Shown here: piece after piece, positions 9,007 to 62,633 of the stretch
Numbering within the stretch: the first letter of the stretch is position 1
How the letters are laid out: every line of letters begins with the position of its first letter
Source: an uncultured Frankineae bacterium
GTDB taxonomy: Bacteria > Actinomycetota > Actinomycetes > Mycobacteriales > SCTD01
Direction of reading: 5' to 3'
Length of the DNA stretch: 64,000 nt
NCBI GenBank assembly: GCA_902805775.1
Contig: CADCUB010000001.1
Location: 30,234 to 94,233 of the forward strand
Position numbers and translations under genes: made by a program
Notes under the pieces: model-generated
The model's input: only the letters and a program-made list of their open reading frames with translations
Database searches by the model: none
Told to the model about the DNA's origin: nothing

Positions 9007-10578
9007 GTGGAGATCGTCCCGTCCTCGGTGCTGGCGCCGGCCGCTCCCGTGGGGTCCCCGGTGCCGGCCGGTCCGCGTCCTGAGCGCGGTCCCGGGCTGC
9101 TGCTCCTGCTCGCCGGCGCCGTCCTGGCGGGCATGCTGCTCTACCTCTCCTTCCCCCCGGTCGGCGCCGAGTGGCTCGCACCGGCGGGCGTCGCGACGTT
9201 CGTGCTCGTCTGCCGCGGTGCGTCCGCCCGGCGCGGCGCGCTGCTCGGCCTGACCACCGGCCTGGCGTTCTTCCTCCCGCTCGTCGAGTGGACGGCGACC
9301 GTCGCCGGGCCGGCCGCGCTGGTCGCGCTCGCCCTGCTGCAGGCGGCCTTCGTCGCGGCTCTGGGGGCGGCGCTGCCCGGCGTGCTGCGCCTGCCGGCGT
9401 GGCCGCTGTGGGCCGCCGCGCTGGTCGTGCTGTCGGAGGCGCTGCGCTCACGGATCCCGTTCGGCGGCTTCCCCTGGGGCCGGCTGGCCTTCAGCCAGGG
9501 CGACAGCCTGCTCACGCCGCTCGCGGCGCTGGGCGGTGCGCCGTTCGTCAGCCTCGTCGTCGCGCTGCTCGGGACGGTGCTGGCCTGGACGCTGCTGCAG
9601 CTGCGCTCCCGCCGGCTGGTCGCTGCAGGAGTGCTCGTCGCGACCGTGGCCGGTGTGCTGGGCGGCAGCGCCCTGGTGCCCCTGCCGGTCGCCGGCGACC
9701 CCGTGCGGGTCGCCGTGGTGCAGGGCAACGTCCCGCGCCTGGGCCTGGCCTTCAACGCGCAGCGTGCGGCGGTCCTGGCCAACCACGTCGCGGCCACGCG
9801 CGCGCTCGCCGCCGACGTGCGGGCCGGCCGGGTGGAGCAGCCCGACCTCGTCCTGTGGCCCGAGAACGCCTCCGACATCGACCCCTTCACCGACGCCGGG
9901 GCGTACCGCCTGATCGACGAGGCGGTCCGCGACGTCGGGGTGCCGGTGCTGGTCGGCGCCGTCCTGCAGGGGCCGGGCGACAGGATCAGCAACGCGGGCG
10001 TGGTGTGGGACCCCGTCGACGGACCGGGAGCGCGCTACGTCAAGCGCCACCCGGTGCCCTTCGGGGAGTACGTCCCGCTGCGCTCCGTCCTGCGCCGCCT
10101 CACCGACAAGGTCGACCTCGTGCCCCGCGACTTCGCGGCCGGCGACGAGGTCGGGGTCCTGGACGTCGGTCCGGTGCGCCTGGGCGACGTCATCTGCTTC
10201 GAGGTGGCCTACGACGACCTCGTCCGCGACGTCGTCACCGGTGGAGGGCGGCTGGTGGTCGTGCAGACCAACAACGCGACCTTCGGCCGCAGCGGGGAGA
10301 CCACGCAGCAGCTGGCCATGGGCCGCCTGCGCGCGGTCGAGCACGGCCGGGCGGTCCTCGTCGCGGCGACCAGCGGCATCAGCGCGGTGATCGCCCCCGA
10401 CGGCGCCCTCGTCGACTCCGCGCCCGTGTTCACGCGCGAGGTGCTGTCCGCACAGGTGCCGACCCGCACCGGTACGACGCCGGCCACCCGCCTGGGAGCG
10501 CTGCCGGAGCTGGCCATCTGCCTGGCCGCCCTGGCGTCGGTGCTCCTGGCGGCCCGCCGGCGGCGGTCACCGACGTGA
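9007..10578 (+). CDS. lnt: apolipoprotein N-acyltransferase
   Basis: In-frame part of ORF 8536..10578. Multiple TM helices (LLLLLAGAVLAGMLLYLSFPP...), then RIPFGGFPWGRLAFSQ and a C-N hydrolase domain (VAVVQGNV, LVLWPENASD, VICFEVAYDDL). The start (GTG 9007) is uncertain by tens of codons. Confidence 0.85.
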   Translation: MEIVPSSVLAPAAPVGSPVPAGPRPERGPGLLLLLAGAVLAGMLLYLSFPPVGAEWLAPAGVATFVLVCRGASARRGALLGLTTGLAFFLPLVEWTATVAGPAALVALALLQAAFVAALGAALPGVLRLPAWPLWAAALVVLSEALRSRIPFGGFPWGRLAFSQGDSLLTPLAALGGAPFVSLVVALLGTVLAWTLLQLRSRRLVAAGVLVATVAGVLGGSALVPLPVAGDPVRVAVVQGNVPRLGLAFNAQRAAVLANHVAATRALAADVRAGRVEQPDLVLWPENASDIDPFTDAGAYRLIDEAVRDVGVPVLVGAVLQGPGDRISNAGVVWDPVDGPGARYVKRHPVPFGEYVPLRSVLRRLTDKVDLVPRDFAAGDEVGVLDVGPVRLGDVICFEVAYDDLVRDVVTGGGRLVVVQTNNATFGRSGETTQQLAMGRLRAVEHGRAVLVAATSGISAVIAPDGALVDSAPVFTREVLSAQVPTRTGTTPATRLGALPELAICLAALASVLLAARRRRSPT

Positions 10579-55564: not shown

Positions 55565-56572
55565 ATGACGGAGTCGCCGGCGAGTAGTCGCCCCCGTGAC
55601 GGCCTGTCGTCGCCCGGACTCGTGGACGTGAGGAAGCGGATGGCACCCTCGCTCGTGTACGTCCACGGCATCGGCAACAAGCTGCCGCGTGTCCCGTTGA
55701 CGCGCCTGTGGGACGCCGCCCTCTTCGGCGACGACTCCCGGTCCTCCTCGCGCATGGCCTACTGGGCGGACCTGCGCTACCCGCGGCCGTTGCCCGAGAG
55801 CGCGACGTCCGCACCGCCGTCCGACGGCGTCGTGTCGGTGCCCGAGAGCGCCGGCGGCGGCAGCGATCCGACGGCCCCGGAGGAGTTCGTCGAGGCAGTC
55901 CTGCGGGAGGCGGCGGGCTCGTCCGGGCGCCGGGCGCCGGAGTCGGCTGAGCCCGAGGCAGCCGCTGTCCCCCCTCCGGGCCTGGTCGCCTGGGGGCAGC
56001 GGATGACCTACGTCGCGGATGCGCTGGCTCGCGGCGCGGCGCCGGCCGCATCACAGCAGGAGGTCTTCCCGGGACCGAGGGCGGTCCGGCAGGCCGTGTT
56101 CCGCGCGCTGGTCGAGCGGGCCCTGAAGGACGTCCACGCCTACTTCTTCGGTGGGCAGCGGGAGCCGGTGCAGGACCGGCTGCGCGAGGTCCTGCAGGCG
56201 GTGGACGGGCCCGTGGTGCTCGTCGCCCACAGCCTCGGCTCCGTCGTGGCCTACGACGTGCTCCGGTCGTGGCAGGGCCCGGCACGGGAGGTCCCCCTGC
56301 TGGTCACCCTTGGCTCTCCACTGGGCACCGAGGAGATCCAGGACCTGCTGGTACGGCCGCTCCAGGTGCCCGACGGCACCGACCGCTGGCTCAACGCCTG
56401 CGACACCCGGGACGTCGTCGCCCTCGACCCGACGCTCCGGCGGGAGTTCCCGCCGGCGGAGCGGGTCTCGGACAGCATCGTCGACAACGACAGCGACAAC
56501 CACCACGGCATCGAGCCGTACCTGCGTGCAGCGGTGGTGCAGCAGGCCGTGCACGCCGCGCTGGCCGGCTGA
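55565..56572 (+). CDS. alpha/beta-hydrolase (lipase/esterase-like) protein, operon gene 1
   Basis: 335 aa. Beta-1 LVYVHGIGNK, nucleophile elbow VVLVAHSLGSVVAYDVL, then LVTLGSPLG, DTRDVVA and NHHGIEPY as candidate Asp/His. A low-complexity insert of about 110 aa follows the first strand. Alternative start at ATG 55640 (GAGGAAG upstream). Confidence 0.8.
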   Translation: MTESPASSRPRDGLSSPGLVDVRKRMAPSLVYVHGIGNKLPRVPLTRLWDAALFGDDSRSSSRMAYWADLRYPRPLPESATSAPPSDGVVSVPESAGGGSDPTAPEEFVEAVLREAAGSSGRRAPESAEPEAAAVPPPGLVAWGQRMTYVADALARGAAPAASQQEVFPGPRAVRQAVFRALVERALKDVHAYFFGGQREPVQDRLREVLQAVDGPVVLVAHSLGSVVAYDVLRSWQGPAREVPLLVTLGSPLGTEEIQDLLVRPLQVPDGTDRWLNACDTRDVVALDPTLRREFPPAERVSDSIVDNDSDNHHGIEPYLRAAVVQQAVHAALAG

Positions 56573-56604
56573 GCCGGCTGCTCCTGAGCCCCGAGGAGGC
56601 CCCC

Positions 56605-57537
56605 GTGCCCGACCGGACGGACCGCGACGACCCCCACGCCCCGGTGACCAACGTCGTCCGCACGCAGGACAGCACCGTGCAGACGCGGCTCGCCGTACCG
56701 CCGGTGCTGGGCTCGGCCCGCCCGGTCGACCCGACCGATGCAGGTGCGGAGGCGGTCGGGGACTCCGGCCTCCGGCTGGAGGCGGCGGTCGAGACCACCG
56801 CTCCCGACGTCCACCTGCCGGACATCGGCGCGGCGTCGTTCGGCGGCGCGGACGTCCAGCTGGAGACCGTCCACGGCAGCGACGACCGCAGGCAGGTGCA
56901 GGAGACGGCGCGCTACCCGTGGTCCGCGACCGCGTCGCTGCTCATCACGACCCGGGACGGGGCGCAGTGGATCGGCACGGGGTGGTTCGTCAGTCCGCGC
57001 ACGCTCGTGACCGCGGGGCACTGCGTGTACATCACCGGCAGCGGGGTCCCGGGACGCGACGGCTGGGTCCTGAGCATGCAGGTCCTGCCCGGCCGCAACG
57101 GCACGTCCCTGCCGTTCGGCGCCGTCACCGCCTCGCAGTTCTGGACCGTGCGCGGCTGGGTCGACGGCGGCGACGAGAACTACGACTACGGCGCCATCGT
57201 CCTGCCGTCCCCGCTGGGCGAGACCGTCGGCACCTACGGCTTCGCCGTCCTGCCCGACGACGAGCTGGCGGGACGGGTGCTCAACGTCGCCGGCTATCCG
57301 GGGGACCAGCCCCCCGGCACGCTGTGGTACGGGTCGCGGACGGTCGCGGCGCTGGGGCCGTCGAAGGTGCACTACGACATCGACACGGCCGGTGGCCAGA
57401 GCGGCGCGGCCGTCTACGTCATCGAGGACGGCAAGCGCCTGGGGGTGGCGGTGCACGCCTACGGCGGCCCGACCACCAACTCCGGGACCCGCATCTCGCC
57501 CGAGGTCTTCCGCAACCTCTCGGACTGGCAGGTGTGA
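56605..57537 (+). CDS. S1B (glutamyl-endopeptidase/V8-like) serine protease without signal peptide, operon gene 2
   Basis: GTG 56605 (GAGGAGG 5 nt upstream) within ORF 56269..57537. 310 aa. Catalytic triad contexts: TLVTAGHCV, NYDYGAIVL, DTAGGQSGAAV. The N-terminal region of about 95 aa is polar with no hydrophobic leader. Confidence 0.85.
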   Translation: MPDRTDRDDPHAPVTNVVRTQDSTVQTRLAVPPVLGSARPVDPTDAGAEAVGDSGLRLEAAVETTAPDVHLPDIGAASFGGADVQLETVHGSDDRRQVQETARYPWSATASLLITTRDGAQWIGTGWFVSPRTLVTAGHCVYITGSGVPGRDGWVLSMQVLPGRNGTSLPFGAVTASQFWTVRGWVDGGDENYDYGAIVLPSPLGETVGTYGFAVLPDDELAGRVLNVAGYPGDQPPGTLWYGSRTVAALGPSKVHYDIDTAGGQSGAAVYVIEDGKRLGVAVHAYGGPTTNSGTRISPEVFRNLSDWQV

Positions 57538-57595
57538 ACCGCCGCCGCCGCCGCCGTCGGCCGCCTCCCCTCGGCCGCGCCCGGGGAGCGGCGCC

Positions 57596-58657
57596 GTGCT
57601 GACCGACGACGAGCGCCACCTCGTCACCGCCGGCCTCCTGCGCGTCGTCGCGCTGGCCACCTCGCCACGGCAGACGCTCGTGGTGGCCCTGCACGAGACG
57701 CTGCAGGAGCGGCTCGGCGAGGGCGAGCCGCGCGTGCTCGTCGAGCGCGCTGTCGACCTGTGCCTGGAGGACGGCTACCGACAGGATCCTCCCGCCCTCG
57801 TGCACCTCCTGCAGACGCTCCTCGTCGCACTCGACCCCGAGGTTGAGCGGATCGCCAGCCGCCTGCGCGAGCCGCCGCCGGAGCTCGACGACCCCTTCGA
57901 CGCGGTCGTCCTCGTGAGCAAGCTGCCGTTCCTCGACCGGCAGTCGACGCGCGCCGCGCTGCGGCAGTTCCTGCAGCGGACGCCCCTGCAGCCGGTCGTC
58001 GTCGTCAACGGACCGGCACACGGCAAGACCTTCACCGGGGACTTCGTCGACCACGTCCTGTCCCCCTGGCCGAAGGTCCGGCACTGCCGCGTGCACCTCG
58101 AGGAGCGCCAGGGCGGGTCGACCGGCCCCGCCGAGCTCGCCTCGGACCTCGTCGCCACCATGGGCGGGAGTCCCGCGAGCGCTCCGCCCGCCAACACCAA
58201 CCTCGACCGCTGGGTCCAGGACCTCGTCAACTGGGCGCTGAGCGTGGCGAACGCGTCCGACTGCAGCTGGTGGTTCGTGCTTGACGGCTTCAACGCCGAG
58301 GAGCTGCGCCCCGACACCCAGCTGCTCATCGCCAAGCTGGCCAAGAGCCTGACCACCGGGGTGGCACGGGAGCGCCACCGTCTCGTCCTCACGGACTTCG
58401 ACCGGACCGTGCTGCCGCTGCAGCCGGGGCTCATCGCGGTGGAGACGACCGCCCCCATCCCCCGCGCCTCGGTGGCGACCGCGGTCGCCCAGGTGCTCTC
58501 GCGGGCGCCCGCGCCGGTGGACCCGGCGCCCGTCCTCGAGCGCGTGCTGCGGGACCTGGGCGATCCGGTCAGCGACCTGCGTGAGCTCGGCCTGCGGCTC
58601 ACCGACCTCATCGCGAGCGTCGGCGAGCCCCTGCCGGCCAGGCCCGGCCCGCCGTGA
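57596..58657 (+). CDS. N-terminal helical adaptor-like domain plus degenerate P-loop NTPase-like domain, operon gene 3
   Basis: GTG 57596 (GGGGAG upstream) within ORF 57392..58657. 353 aa. Walker-A-like VVVNGPAHGKTF has Asn in place of the first Gly. Walker-B-like WWFVLDGFN. The N-terminal 100 aa share the AVDLCLEDGY...LVHLLQ motif with genes 4 and 5. Confidence 0.78.
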   Translation: MLTDDERHLVTAGLLRVVALATSPRQTLVVALHETLQERLGEGEPRVLVERAVDLCLEDGYRQDPPALVHLLQTLLVALDPEVERIASRLREPPPELDDPFDAVVLVSKLPFLDRQSTRAALRQFLQRTPLQPVVVVNGPAHGKTFTGDFVDHVLSPWPKVRHCRVHLEERQGGSTGPAELASDLVATMGGSPASAPPANTNLDRWVQDLVNWALSVANASDCSWWFVLDGFNAEELRPDTQLLIAKLAKSLTTGVARERHRLVLTDFDRTVLPLQPGLIAVETTAPIPRASVATAVAQVLSRAPAPVDPAPVLERVLRDLGDPVSDLRELGLRLTDLIASVGEPLPARPGPP

Positions 58658-61536
58658 GCGAGCCGCCCACGACGACCGAGTCGCTGCTGCAGGCGCTGGA
58701 CGCGCGGATCGGCGCCCGGCAGGAGAGGGCCGCCGGCGCGCCGTCCCGCCGCACCTCCGTGAACCCCCTGCTGCAGGCGGCCGCGGTCCTGCACGTCTTC
58801 GACCCCACTGCGTTGCGGTCCGTGGGGACCGGTGGCTCCGCGTCGGACGCGGCCCTGGTCGAGGTGCTGCACGCGTCGGTGCCTGCGATCGGCTGGCGCG
58901 GCGCGGGGCTGCGCACCCTGCGGCTGCAGGTCCGCCGCACCGCCCTGCGCGAGCTGGGGTCGCGGACGGCCATGCGGGCGGCGCTCACGGCGAACCCGGA
59001 CCGGGTGCAGACCGAGCTGCAGCAGCAGTTCGAGCGGTGGCTGGGCGACGACGGGTTCGCGCTCGACCGCATGGCCTACGTCGAGCTGGAGGCGCTGCGC
59101 CAGCTCTACGACTGGGGTCTGGCGAGCTCCGACGGCGCCCTGCCGCCGGTCGAGCTCGTCGAGCGGGCGCGGGCCCGTCGCTCGACCGTCGCCGTCTTCG
59201 AGCACCTGGTCGACGAGGACTTCGTCGGCCGGGCGGAAGAGCTCGCGCTCCTCGAGGGACACGTGCGCTCGCCGGGCGGCGTGCCGCTGGTCATCTGGGG
59301 TCCGGGCGGCGCCGGCAAGACCGCCCTCGTGGGGCGCTTCCTCATCCGCTACGCCGAGGACCCGGAGGCCGGCTGGTTCCCCTTCGCCTACCTCCCCTTC
59401 GACTCCGAGACCCTGGACGTGCGTGAGCCGTTCACGCTGCTGCTCCCCGCCGCGACGCAGCTGGGCAACCAGGCGGGGGCCGCCCAGGGGCCGTCGGCGC
59501 CGACGGAGGCCGCGCGCCTCCGGGACGCGCTCCAGCGCTTCACCTCTGCCGTGGGCGACTACCGCGACCGTCGAGGGGCACTGCGCCGGCGGGCCAGCGA
59601 CGTCGAGCAGCGCGTCGCGCGGCTGGACAGCCTCTCGAGCGCCGACGTCGCGCTGTACGACGCGTTCGCCGACGTGCTCGAGACCGCCGCCGAGATCACG
59701 GTGCCGCCGTGGGACACGGTCCTGCTCGTGTTCGACACCTTCGAGGAGGTCGTCTACCGGGCAGCGGAGGACCTGCTCGGCTTCTGGTCGATGCTCGAGC
59801 ACCTGCAGCGCCGCCTGCCGCGCCTGCGTGTCGTCATCGCCGGCCGCGGCCGGCCCGACCCCGCCTCCACCGCGGCGATCCCCCTGCGCCAGGTCGTGCT
59901 CGGCGATCTGGACGAGGACGACGCCGTACGCCTGCTGGGCAAGCTGGGCGTCGACGACCCGGCCCTGGCACGTCGGGTGGCGCACCAGGTCGGAGGCAGC
60001 CCGATGTCGCTGCGGCTCGCGGCGAGCGTCGTGACCGCCGAGGGGGCCGGGGACCACGGCCTGCAGGGGCTGTCGGTGCACAAGATCGGACCCGAGCTCG
60101 TCCGCGGCCACCTCTACCGGCGGCTGCTCGACCACATCCACGACGAGGACGTCAGGGCGCTGGCGCATCCCGGCATGGTGCTGCGGCGGGTGACGCCGAC
60201 GATCATCGAGCGCGTCCTCGCGCCGGCGTGCGACCTGCCGGGCGTGTCGAGCGCTCGGGCGGTCGAGCTGTTCGAGGAGCTGCAACGGGAGCAGTCCCTG
60301 GTGAGCCTGGACAAGGACGGCTCGCTGCACTACCGGGAGGACGTCCGCCGCCCGGTGCTCCAGCTGCTGGCCCACGACGCGCCGGCCTCCGTCCGGCTGC
60401 TCCACGCCTACGCCGTGGAGCACTACCTGCACTCCGCAGCGCCCGCGCACCGGGCGGAGGAGCTGTACCACCGGATGATGCTCGCTCAGCCGCCGGAGCA
60501 GCTGGACGACCGCTGGCTGCCCGGCGTCGAGAGGTTCCTCGCCTCCGCCATCGAGGAGCTGCCCCTCGAGCAGCGCCGCTGGCTGGCCGGCAGGATGAGC
60601 ATCGAGCTGCCCGCGGAGGTCTACCGGCTGGCCCACCTCGGCGAGTGGGAGCGCCTGGTCGGACGCCGAGCGCTGCAGCTGCTGCGCTACGGGGGGCCGG
60701 CGGCCGTGCTGGACCTGCTGTCGGAACGGCCGGAACGGACACCGGGCAGCCCGTTGTCCGCCGTCGAGGCGCGGGTCCTGCTCGACCTGCAGCGGCCGCA
60801 GGACGCTGCTTCGCTGCTGGACGGGGCCCTCGCCGAGTTCCCCGCACTCGGCAATCCGGGACGCCTGGCCGAGCTGCTCTGGCTGCGCACGCAGGCGGCG
60901 GCGGTGCTCGGCGAGAGCTCGACGCGCCTCGCGCTCCTGCACCGGCTCGTCGACGTCACGGCCGGCATGCACTCGTCGCTGGCGCACGTCCAGGCCCTCA
61001 CCGAGCTGCTGGGGGCCCTGGACCCCGACAGCCGTCCCGACGCCGTGGGCGAGGCGGGGCGCGTCCGTCCGGCGCTCGCCCAGGCCCTGGGTCGGCTGAC
61101 GCAGGACGAGATCGCGACCGAGAGGTCACTGGTCCGCCTGGCGCTGGTCCGGCTCGGGCCGCACTACCCGTCGCTGGTGGCCCAGCTGGCGCCGCTCGTC
61201 CTGTTCGACCTGACCTACCTCGCCGACTCGGGCCTGGTCGACCTGCTCCCCGCCCTGCCCCGGGTCCGTGAGCTGCTCGCCGACCTGCTGCCGTCGGACG
61301 GCGCGCCCGCAGGCGACGGGCGCGCGACGGCCGGTGTCGTCGCCGAGCGCATCGTGTCGGCGCTCGCACGCAGGACGCGGGCGGAGGAGGGCGGAGCCCC
61401 GCTCGCGCGCCTCGCGGCGGGCGTCCTGCTCCTGCTGCGCGCGGAAGGGGCCTCCCTGTCGGGCTCCTCCCTCGCCGGGCTCGAGGACTACCGGGAGACC
61501 TGGGAGCTGGAGACGACACGAGAGGTGGCGGGCTGA
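58654..61536 (+). CDS. STAND-class P-loop NTPase (AAA_16/NB-ARC-like) with N-terminal adaptor-like region and C-terminal helical-repeat domain, operon gene 4
   Basis: 960 aa. GTG overlaps the gene 3 stop as GTGA. FVGRAEELALLEGHV...PLVIWGPGGAGKTALV is Walker A and VLLVFDTFEEV is Walker B. It continues with RVVIAGR, LGDLDEDDAVRLL, GGSPMSLRLAA, then about 450 aa of Leu/Ala-rich helical repeats. Confidence 0.88.
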   Translation: MSEPPTTTESLLQALDARIGARQERAAGAPSRRTSVNPLLQAAAVLHVFDPTALRSVGTGGSASDAALVEVLHASVPAIGWRGAGLRTLRLQVRRTALRELGSRTAMRAALTANPDRVQTELQQQFERWLGDDGFALDRMAYVELEALRQLYDWGLASSDGALPPVELVERARARRSTVAVFEHLVDEDFVGRAEELALLEGHVRSPGGVPLVIWGPGGAGKTALVGRFLIRYAEDPEAGWFPFAYLPFDSETLDVREPFTLLLPAATQLGNQAGAAQGPSAPTEAARLRDALQRFTSAVGDYRDRRGALRRRASDVEQRVARLDSLSSADVALYDAFADVLETAAEITVPPWDTVLLVFDTFEEVVYRAAEDLLGFWSMLEHLQRRLPRLRVVIAGRGRPDPASTAAIPLRQVVLGDLDEDDAVRLLGKLGVDDPALARRVAHQVGGSPMSLRLAASVVTAEGAGDHGLQGLSVHKIGPELVRGHLYRRLLDHIHDEDVRALAHPGMVLRRVTPTIIERVLAPACDLPGVSSARAVELFEELQREQSLVSLDKDGSLHYREDVRRPVLQLLAHDAPASVRLLHAYAVEHYLHSAAPAHRAEELYHRMMLAQPPEQLDDRWLPGVERFLASAIEELPLEQRRWLAGRMSIELPAEVYRLAHLGEWERLVGRRALQLLRYGGPAAVLDLLSERPERTPGSPLSAVEARVLLDLQRPQDAASLLDGALAEFPALGNPGRLAELLWLRTQAAAVLGESSTRLALLHRLVDVTAGMHSSLAHVQALTELLGALDPDSRPDAVGEAGRVRPALAQALGRLTQDEIATERSLVRLALVRLGPHYPSLVAQLAPLVLFDLTYLADSGLVDLLPALPRVRELLADLLPSDGAPAGDGRATAGVVAERIVSALARRTRAEEGGAPLARLAAGVLLLLRAEGASLSGSSLAGLEDYRETWELETTREVAG

Positions 61537-62633
61537 TGGCGACCGAGCAGCTCCCTGCGCAGCAGCTGGACGCCGTGCGCACCGCCCTGCTGGAGGTGCT
61601 GGGCTACGACGCCGCGACCCGGGGAGCGCTGCTCACGGGCCTGCCCGTGGCGGTGCGGGGACTGCTGCCCGGCGGGCAGGCCGCCCCTGCCATCGGGCTC
61701 GCGCTCGACCTCGGATTCCTGAACGGGATCGGCCGGCTGGCGGACGGCACCGTCCCGATCAAGGTCCTCCTCGAGCGCGCGGTCTCGCTCGCCGGGCCGA
61801 TCGAGGCGGCGGACGTCGTGCGCGACGCGCTGTCGGAGGTCGAGGCGCGGACGAGCGGGGCGCCGCCCGTGGTCGTCGCCGGACTGCCCGAGCTGAAGGA
61901 GGCGGTGGTCCTGCGCGACGACATGGTCCCGTTCGGCTTCCTGCACGGCGGCCTGGCCGCCGCGCGGGCGGTGGCCAAGCTGATGGTGACGCGGCACGAC
62001 GACGGCCGGCCCACGCTGGTCTCCGGCAAGCCCGTCGTCCACCTGGGCACCGGATGGCTCGTCGCTCCGGGTCTGCTCATGACCAACCACCACGTCGTCG
62101 CCGCACGGGCGCAGGGCGACGCTCCCCCGAGCGCGGCCGACCTGCGTGCGCAGGCCGTCGGCATGACGGTGCTGTTCGACTACGACGACGACGCCACCAC
62201 GGGCACCGCCGTCGAGGCGGTCGAGCTCGTGGCCGCCGACCCCGGTCTGGACTACGCGCTGGTGCGGCTGGCGGACGCGGGGCGCCCGCCGCTCACGCTG
62301 TCGACCGAGCCGGTCGCCGCCGTGAGCCCCGGCCAGGAGATCGCGATCAACGTCATCCAGCACCCCGACGGCCGGTCGAAGCGCTTCGCTCTCCGCAACA
62401 ACGTGCTCACGGCCGCCACGCCGACCGAGCTCCGCTACCTCACCGACACGCTGGGGGGCTCGTCCGGCTCGCCGCTGCTCGACGACACCTGGCAGGTGGT
62501 GGGACTGCACCGCGGCAGCACCTTCGTCAGCGGAGTGCAGTTCCAGGGCCGCAGGGTCGCGTGCGTCAACGTCGGCACCCCCATCACGGCGGTCCTCGCG
62601 CACGCCGGGCCCCACCTGCCGGGCCCCGTCTAG
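61536..62633 (+). CDS. N-terminal adaptor-like domain fused to trypsin-like (S1/DegP-like) serine protease, operon gene 5
   Basis: 365 aa. The ATG overlaps the gene 4 TGA by 1 nt. Triad contexts: LLMTNHHVV, GLDYALVRL, TLGGSSGSPLL. The N-terminal 110 aa are helical with ALDLGFLNGI...ADGTVPIKVLLERA. No signal peptide. Confidence 0.88.
   Translation: MATEQLPAQQLDAVRTALLEVLGYDAATRGALLTGLPVAVRGLLPGGQAAPAIGLALDLGFLNGIGRLADGTVPIKVLLERAVSLAGPIEAADVVRDALSEVEARTSGAPPVVVAGLPELKEAVVLRDDMVPFGFLHGGLAAARAVAKLMVTRHDDGRPTLVSGKPVVHLGTGWLVAPGLLMTNHHVVAARAQGDAPPSAADLRAQAVGMTVLFDYDDDATTGTAVEAVELVAADPGLDYALVRLADAGRPPLTLSTEPVAAVSPGQEIAINVIQHPDGRSKRFALRNNVLTAATPTELRYLTDTLGGSSGSPLLDDTWQVVGLHRGSTFVSGVQFQGRRVACVNVGTPITAVLAHAGPHLPGPV

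Follow-up and report, generated by a model that had tools for sequence, protein, structure and literature searches.

A leaderless V8-type protease encoded beside a STAND NTPase, predicted to be a cytoplasmic zymogen

Introduction

Glutamyl endopeptidases of the V8 type are textbook secreted enzymes. A 64,000-nucleotide stretch of high-GC DNA from an uncultured Frankineae bacterium (contig CADCUB010000001.1, positions 30,234 to 94,233; the window in what follows) contains a gene for a protease of this type, gene 2 (56605..57537, + strand), which begins without an export signal. It is the second of five tightly packed genes (genes 1-5) on the + strand, one of which encodes a STAND NTPase. This locus raises the question of what such a protease does inside a cell and how it is kept inactive there. 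We suggest, with a probability of roughly 0.55, that gene 2 encodes the cytoplasmic zymogen of a glutamate-specific S1B endopeptidase, which is predicted to act as an effector or an amplifier of the STAND operon.

Gene 2 is a V8-type serine protease

The open reading frame (ORF) of gene 2 is stop-free, encodes 310 amino acids, and terminates with TGA at 57535-57537. A GAGGAGG ribosome-binding site (RBS; 56593..56599, +), read directly from the DNA, lies 5 nt before the GTG start at 56605. No ATG, GTG, or TTG codon was found in frame upstream of this GTG back to position 56269, and the GC content at third codon positions (GC3) of the stretch 56269-56605 was 0.46 in the frame of gene 2 versus 0.93 in that of gene 1, indicating that the stretch is not coding in the former frame. 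Within gene 2, GC3 was 0.94 for the pro-region and 0.98 for the catalytic part. Furthermore, the N-termini of the homologues coincide with the GTG start. An upstream start with a hidden leader was ruled out by these results, the upstream stretch being gene 1, and the RBS-backed GTG chosen in an original prediction, which had been made from the sequence alone, was confirmed as the sole usable start.

The deduced protein contains the motifs TAGHCV (residues 136-141), DYGAIVL (194-200), and GGQSGAAV (263-270). In an alignment of 110 homologue sequences of gene 2, to which all counts out of 110 refer, the catalytic triad consisting of His139 (CAC, 57019..57021, +), Asp194 (GAC, 57184..57186, +), and Ser266 (AGC, 57400..57402, +) was invariant (110/110). 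Two residues of the S1 pocket were likewise conserved. Thr261 (57385..57387, +; 108/110), a residue of the Glu-type, corresponds to position 190 of chymotrypsin when the numbering is counted back from Ser195, and His284 (57454..57456, +; 110/110), of the Glu/Gln-type, corresponds to chymotrypsin His213. Thr or Ser at position 190 together with His213 characterises the S1 pocket of Glu/Gln-specific proteases (PMC5508998).

Gene 2 matched the Pfam families Trypsin_2 (1.2e-6) and Trypsin (1.8e-5). When the family profile was compared with PDB, the best match was the Bacillus intermedius glutamyl endopeptidase (BIGEP; 1p3c, 4.9e-22), followed by Esp and V8. A Foldseek search with the AlphaFold2 (AF2) model of gene 2, which had a mean predicted local distance difference test score (pLDDT) of 88.3 and a predicted template modelling score (pTM) of 0.89, also returned 1p3c at the top (TM 0.86), followed by V8, Esp, and pro-Esp. 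Pfam, the PDB profile, and Foldseek place the catalytic domain at residues 88-310 (56866..57534, +). Gene 2 is an S1B protease of the V8/BIGEP type with a chymotrypsin fold and the His-Asp-Ser order, as the contexts of its triad had originally suggested.

With the glutamyl endopeptidase I enzymes of MEROPS S1B, namely V8/SspA of Staphylococcus aureus, Esp of Staphylococcus epidermidis, and BIGEP, gene 2 shares the chymotrypsin fold, the His-Asp-Ser triad, the Thr190/His213 signature, and an N-terminal extension ahead of a predicted mature start that aligns residue for residue (G91, D93, R95). In contrast to the pre-pro organisation of these enzymes, gene 2 has no secretion signal peptide, and its 87-residue prosegment bears conserved motifs of its own. 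The residue at -1 is an invariant Glu, whereas most V8-type enzymes have a different residue there and need another protease; the residue at +1 is Thr and not the Val of V8; and the gene lies in an NTPase operon.

Gene 2 and its close homologues begin without a leader

Export signals were surveyed in 121 close homologues and in 148 more distant cluster representatives. Neither a hydrophobic leader nor a Tat motif was found in any of the 121 close homologues when the first 70 residues were scored with a Kyte-Doolittle 10-mer. The median of the scores was 1.08, and the maximum of 2.23 belongs to a truncated entry, in which it falls within the catalytic domain. A signal-like N-terminus was seen in 5 of the 148 distant representatives. 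For gene 2 itself, a Sec or Tat signal was looked for from any possible start, and none was seen. It had been claimed that no leader precedes the protease, either from GTG 56605 or from the in-frame sequence upstream, and this claim holds, as there is no other start and no leader among the close homologues.

A conserved prosegment ends at a putative cleavage site

The region ahead of the catalytic domain (residues 1-87; 56605..56865, +) is not covered by any Pfam or NCBIfam family, and matches in PDB start at residue 89. It carries family-wide motifs, namely H11-x-P13-x-x-N16, G36, E49, E59, L71-x-D73-x-G75-x-A77-S78-F79, and E87. These motifs are present in both clades of the protease tree described below, which argues that the role of the prosegment is intrinsic to the enzyme and is not docking to the STAND protein.

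In the HMMER alignment, residue 2 of mature BIGEP was aligned to V89, with G91, D93, and R95 as anchors; hence, the mature enzyme would begin at T88, the counterpart of the first residue in mature BIGEP and V8. The predicted activation junction is therefore Glu87-Thr88 (GAG ACC; 56863..56868, +). E87 was invariant in the alignment (110/110) and was found in 80 of the 81 rows of the locus set described below. In distant relatives with unrelated N-termini, the alignment starts at about residues 83-87, and of the 105 distant representatives in which the junction motif could be recognised, 92 have a Glu before it. In the AF2 model, pLDDT was 86-96 for the pro-region segments 11-20, 31-50, and 71-80, and 55-66 for 21-30, 51-60, and 81-90, the low-confidence linkers (the second of which extends to residue 62) that contain E59 and E87. 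This modelled pattern is what docked segments connected by exposed loops open to cleavage would give.

The S1 pocket of V8, BIGEP, and Esp depends on the alpha-amino group of residue 1 for charge compensation, and these enzymes consequently stay inactive until the propeptide has been removed exactly; natural or engineered V8-type variants with Glu at -1 autoactivate (PMC5508998). Taken together, these findings suggest that the N-terminus of gene 2 is a conserved prosegment ending at a putative cleavage site, E87/T88. The original prediction had described a polar pro-region of 95 amino acids. Its zymogen-like N-terminal segment was retained, whereas the length was corrected to 87 residues with the end at E87/T88, and the family-wide motifs indicate that the segment is not merely polar.

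A STAND block accompanies one clade of the protease

In the window, gene 2 is followed after 58 nt by gene 3 (57596..58657, +; 353 aa), whose N-terminus resembles an adaptor and whose body is a small P-loop NTPase, and which has no Pfam match. Gene 4 (58654..61536, +), which overlaps gene 3 by 4 nt, encodes a 960-aa STAND NTPase with a helical C-terminal arm (Pfam AAA_16, 3.6e-9). Gene 5 (61536..62633, +; 365 aa), which overlaps gene 4 by 1 nt, encodes an EAD5 adaptor (6.5e-24) followed by a trypsin-like protease (Trypsin_2, 2.6e-22). Gene 1 (55565..56572, +), located 32 nt upstream of gene 2, is an alpha/beta hydrolase by a weak Pfam match, with a GHSLG nucleophile motif and a variable acidic insert; in the database gene call it starts at ATG 55640 (310 aa).

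The context of the protease was analysed in 80 loci plus the window (81 rows), in which ORFs were called, clustered, and searched with hidden Markov models (HMMs) from genes 3-5. The maximum-likelihood tree of the proteases separated a 25-row clade, to which the window belongs, from a 56-row clade (SH-aLRT 95). A gene-3-like P-loop protein together with a gene-4-like STAND protein was found in 18 of the 25 rows of the window's clade versus 0/56 in the other, and several of the seven unlinked loci in the former clade sit on short contigs. Twelve loci, from Actinomycetota, Alpha- and Gammaproteobacteria, and Bacteroidota, have the order gene 2, an optional small gene, an optional PLD gene, and then genes 3, 4, and 5, and the identity ranks of the four proteins are concordant. 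Six more, from Bacteroidota, Acidobacteriota, and Chloroflexota, have a variant P-loop protein (c10) and a STAND protein. The trypsin-like protease is EAD5-tagged in 12 of the STAND-linked loci. The order of genes 2-3-4-5 is also seen in independent gene calls, in records of Pyxidicoccus and Paractinoplanes. Of the four block proteins (genes 2-5), that of gene 2 shows the highest conservation.

The STAND linkage is confined to a single protease clade and spans at least four phyla. The position of gene 2 next to a STAND NTPase, from which the original prediction had started, is therefore not accidental. In the 56-row clade, the neighbours are heterogeneous, with a mild excess of peptidases (S8, M14, M4, C13, and trypsin), PLD, and Endonuclease_NS.

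Two further features were observed around these genes. Gene-4-related STAND NTPases of about 1190 aa with an N-terminally fused trypsin-like domain, and no adaptor recruitment, are encoded at L022:7029-10625 (-) and L059:697-4269 (-); both loci belong to the six with the variant P-loop protein. In the window, a perfect (CCG)6 run (57539-57556) directly follows the stop codon of gene 2 inside the 58-nt spacer to gene 3. A regulatory hairpin or terminator in this spacer was considered and dropped, since its folding was no better than that of shuffled sequences (z 0.39); consensus scans of the spacer were empty.

Possible activation of gene 2 and alternative explanations

The zymogen reading starts from observations, namely the fold, the triad, the S1 residues, the missing leader, a conserved prosegment with its E87, and the conserved linkage to the STAND block. 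What we infer from these is that E87 is cut, which protein acts as activator, what the substrates are, and that there is a role in defence. In the proposed mechanism, the 87-residue prosegment would wrap the catalytic domain and hold the enzyme inactive. A cut between Glu87 and Thr88 would free the alpha-amino group of residue 88 and thereby complete the S1 pocket, and only then would the enzyme become active. The STAND protein of gene 4 would sense a trigger, oligomerise, and recruit the gene 5 protease, and the proform of gene 2 could be cut either by the recruited gene 5 or by gene 2 that is already active. A cut in trans by gene 2 is plausible because Glu, its expected P1 residue, stands at position 87. 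Gene 5 could plausibly cut after Glu too, because its S1 signature T190/H213 is conserved in 9/9 orthologues and its nearest solved relatives are, weakly, glutamyl endopeptidases (1p3c, E 0.0015); gene 5 is, judged from these residues, a plausible candidate for the E87-cutting protease. Of the original prediction, the cytoplasmic, zymogen-like, and STAND-linked parts are supported, whereas its activation within a proteolytic cascade remains a conjecture. Active gene 2 would degrade cytoplasmic proteins, unlock the gene 1 hydrolase, or do both, and the infected cell would stop growing or die.

A large and very conserved V8-type branch apparently works inside the cell. If the zymogen reading is true, it would supply a bacterial executioner-protease tier downstream of an NLR-like receptor, whose activation logic is legible from the sequence: the P1 Glu is invariant, and cleavage after it would create the N-terminus needed to complete the S1 pocket. 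The reading would also give a role to the adaptor-less "extra" proteases of CARD-NLR-type operons and point to protease-gated lipid hydrolases as effectors. A more elaborate form, which we put forward tentatively and hold to be doubtful, is a two-tier cascade like that of initiator and executioner caspases. The STAND protein would bring copies of the EAD5-tagged gene 5 protease together and activate them, gene 5 would make the first cuts at Glu87, and gene 2 would spread the activation in trans, so that the response becomes all-or-none. Gene 2 would kill by degrading proteins in bulk and by cleaving the acidic, Glu-bearing insert that interrupts the gene 1 hydrolase, which would yield a lipase-type effector. 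The STAND-less members would consist of the zymogen and a beta-sandwich partner, acting as a stand-alone protease/inhibitor switch.

Several observations weigh against the zymogen reading. The predicted new N-terminus of the gene 2 homologues is Thr in 91, Ala in 10, and Ser in 6 sequences, and not Val, and changing Val1 of V8 to Ala or Ser lowers the activity about 20-fold or about 200-fold, respectively (PMC5508998). Autoactivation by a Glu at -1 would endanger the cytoplasm unless a second lock exists. No STAND neighbour is present in 56 of the 81 family members, so that activation throughout the family cannot rest on the STAND module. The small beta-sandwich partner found beside most relatives, described below, is absent from the window locus and from the whole genome, which is 92% complete. 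NCBIfam and PADLOC (v2) left genes 2-4 unmatched, and there was no obvious defence island among the ORFs read around the operon. Finally, the first protease of the Lysobacter CARD-NLR system, which has no adaptor, was not needed for defence against the phages tested (PMC10312443).

The residues that follow E87, Thr, Ala, or Ser and not the Val preferred by V8, also speak for an explanation in which residues 1-87 are a permanent regulatory or docking domain. In that case, the enzyme would be switched allosterically, through binding of gene 3 or gene 4 or through loss of an inhibitor, and E87 would not be cut. The segment is conserved in a domain-like manner and is partly modelled with confidence against the core, and the beta-sandwich protein paired with most relatives is a possible inhibitor. 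However, E87 is invariant at the exact equivalent of the maturation site, the unrelated N-terminal regions of distant relatives end at the same boundary, and the S1 pocket of the closest relatives of known structure needs a free N-terminus; we therefore regard a permanent domain as unlikely.

The loci without a STAND gene bear on a different explanation, namely that the protease is a self-contained module unrelated to immunity, which would serve protein turnover, peptide maturation, or development and whose association with STAND genes is secondary or coincidental. Such a module would agree with the heterogeneous neighbours, metabolic genes included, and with the surroundings of the operon, where no obvious defence island was seen. 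Against this, the STAND-linked copies belong to one clade (18/25) that covers at least four phyla with conserved order and concordant divergence, and in the window genes 2 and 3 lie 58 nt apart and genes 3/4 and 4/5 overlap. The patchy distribution (5/401 genomes of the phylum, with relatives at 50% identity or more in about ten phyla) is, moreover, typical of mobile accessory systems, and a non-immune module appears improbable to us. We give still less credit to export by a signal-independent route, such as specialised secretion or lysis, followed by action outside the cell. It is true that all characterised close structural relatives are secreted and that a few distant representatives have signal-like N-termini, but gene 2 has no leader at any start, the family occurs in Gram-positives, in Gram-negatives, and in one archaeal metagenome-assembled genome (MAG) with no recurrent secretion genes nearby, and its conserved partners are cytoplasmic NTPases. 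An extracellular role is accordingly very unlikely.

Relation to known STAND systems

Gene 2 lies beside a core, genes 3-5, that resembles, as judged from sequence comparison, the CARD-NLR (LypAB-like) systems. The systems of Lysobacter, Pedobacter, and Caulobacter combine an adaptor-tagged trypsin-like protease with a STAND NTPase; LypA joins the protease and a small ATPase domain in one chain, and the variable neighbour gene of CARD-NLR systems encodes the effector, which is a gasdermin, a phospholipase, or a nuclease (PMC10312443, PMC13236601). With CARD-NLR/LypABC (Wein et al. preprint, PMC10312443; Caulobacter LypABC, PMC13236601), the window has in common a STAND NTPase with a C-terminal sensor arm, an adaptor-tagged trypsin-like protease, a small ATPase module, a second, adaptor-less protease, and a variable, putative effector slot with phospholipase-type genes. 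It differs in its adaptor, which is EAD5 (Pfam PF19957) with no recognised CARD; in its protease and P-loop, which are split over two genes (gene 3 being the separate ATPase), as opposed to the fusions in LypA and at the Rhizobium locus L003; and in its slot, which holds a V8-like pro-protease and an alpha/beta hydrolase.

The adaptor of gene 5 had no sequence match to CARD-like structures, and EAD5 occurs once in the genome of the window. The N-terminus of the gene 4 STAND protein was rejected as a partner of EAD5 (hhalign probability below 1%). The N-termini of gene 5 and gene 3 matched weakly in hhalign (probability 45%, E 2e-4, 44 columns); a Pfam EAD on gene 3 was also considered and rejected, with no match in 11 gene 3 orthologues even at E<=1. 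A Kitasatospora operon contains a gene-1-like hydrolase, an EAD1-trypsin, an EAD1-tagged protein, and a STAND protein that is homologous to gene 4 throughout its length. The EAD1-tagged protein, whose N-terminus is Pfam EAD1, shares homology with the gene 3 body (5.8e-17). Since this gene 3 homologue and the trypsin both carry EAD1, gene-3-type proteins appear to share the adaptor of their partner protease. A 300-aa trypsin encoded upstream in the Kitasatospora locus was examined as a relative of gene 2 and set aside as an ordinary secreted S1A trypsin.

The EAD-coupled NTPase conflict systems (Kaur, Burroughs, Iyer, and Aravind 2020, PMC7159879) likewise have an EAD on a stand-alone trypsin-like protease beside a STAND core. 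For these systems, proteolytic cascades were proposed as thresholding devices, and their peptidase-rich loci contain S8 and NucA genes. The window differs in that a putative second copy of EAD5, on gene 3, is only weakly detectable by the hhalign match given above, and a V8-like pro-protease family was not among what a term search of that paper brought up. Pro-nucleases that are unlocked by trypsin-like proteases fused to STAND or Hachiman proteins have also been described (Tuck et al. 2025, PMC12799240). The window shares with them a predicted intracellular pro-enzyme beside a protease tied to a STAND/Hachiman sensor; its pro-enzyme is a protease and not a metallo-beta-lactamase (MBL) nuclease. 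No link of V8-like proteases with STAND systems or phage defence was found in the literature searched. The locus is a variant in which an S1B glutamyl endopeptidase is combined with a CARD-NLR/EAD-type STAND system, both of which are of known kinds.

Gene 1 and the 5' end of the block

In loci of Bacteroidota and Acidobacteriota, a PLD gene directly follows gene 2. The gene 1 family, in which GHSLG, an Asp, and NHHG are conserved, provides the first gene in three STAND/CHAT operons without gene 2. At L090:7001-7909 it is followed by LypA/LypC-like proteases and a STAND protein, and at L091:7001-7912 by an EAD1-trypsin, an EAD1-tagged small protein, and a STAND protein; the arrangement at L092:7001-7948 is as in L091, but with a TPR/CHAT protein. 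Gene 1 as part of a block travelling with gene 2 was considered and rejected, as tblastn found one other locus only, on the opposite strand. The acidic insert of the gene 1 family lies between the first strand and the nucleophile, is variable, and contains a recurring Glu (PES/LES/LEA); it might be a gate that is cut by a protease.

Natural fusions of the whole pro-protease were found with a double PLD (P0123) and with a phosphoesterase of PF04185 (P0133), and a subtilase S8 with its own N-pro domain is fused with the pro-protease in P0127, P0130, and P0163. From these gene arrangements, gene 2 seems to occupy a variable 5' effector slot that is held elsewhere by PLD or an alpha/beta hydrolase. 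The placement of the PLD and hydrolase genes, together with the fusions, suggests that genes 1 and 2 are interchangeable 5' modules on one type of core, both of which are present in the window. In two metagenomic "V8-like" gene calls, P0034 and P0302 (403 and 559 aa, respectively), a gene-1-like C-terminal piece stands ahead of the protease; each is either a true fusion or an over-extended gene call. As both pieces are joined in them, the order of gene 1 followed by gene 2 recurs in relatives.

Distribution and companions of the family

The gene 2 family comprises 661 clusters at E<=1e-30. Relatives that are 50-69% identical over the full length occur in about ten phyla, and the taxa include Actinomycetota, Pseudomonadota, Bacteroidota, Acidobacteriota, Chloroflexota, Cyanobacteriota, Verrucomicrobiota, Planctomycetota, Myxococcota, and one Nitrososphaeraceae MAG. 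The five positive genomes among the 401 sampled from the phylum of the window include none of the same order. Carriage by plasmids or phages was considered and rejected, since no close relative was found there; the best plasmid match was 45% identical and covered the catalytic domain only.

A gene of about 90 aa for a CarboxypepD_reg-like (beta-sandwich) protein lies directly 3' of the protease gene on the same strand in 68 of the 81 loci, with a median gap of 29 nt (for example, L014:10906-11193, +). This partner may be an inhibitor or a cofactor. It is also absent from the closest relatives of the window and from the STAND subclade of Bacteroidota. In Rhizobium, a CarboxypepD_reg-like gene (L003:7276-7533, -) heads a divergent PLD-trypsin-trypsin-STAND operon.

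The Nitrososphaeraceae archaeon MAG (L077) encodes a protease at 9276-10142 that is 52% identical, with the small partner, and a subtilase and an M14 carboxypeptidase are encoded nearby; this copy could reflect either cross-domain transfer or a binning artefact. Genes for M4 thermolysin-type metalloproteases adjoin the protease gene in three loci (L045:5997-7265, -; L053:11250-12248, +; L065:1228-2373, +). In Staphylococcus aureus, the M4 enzyme aureolysin activates V8.

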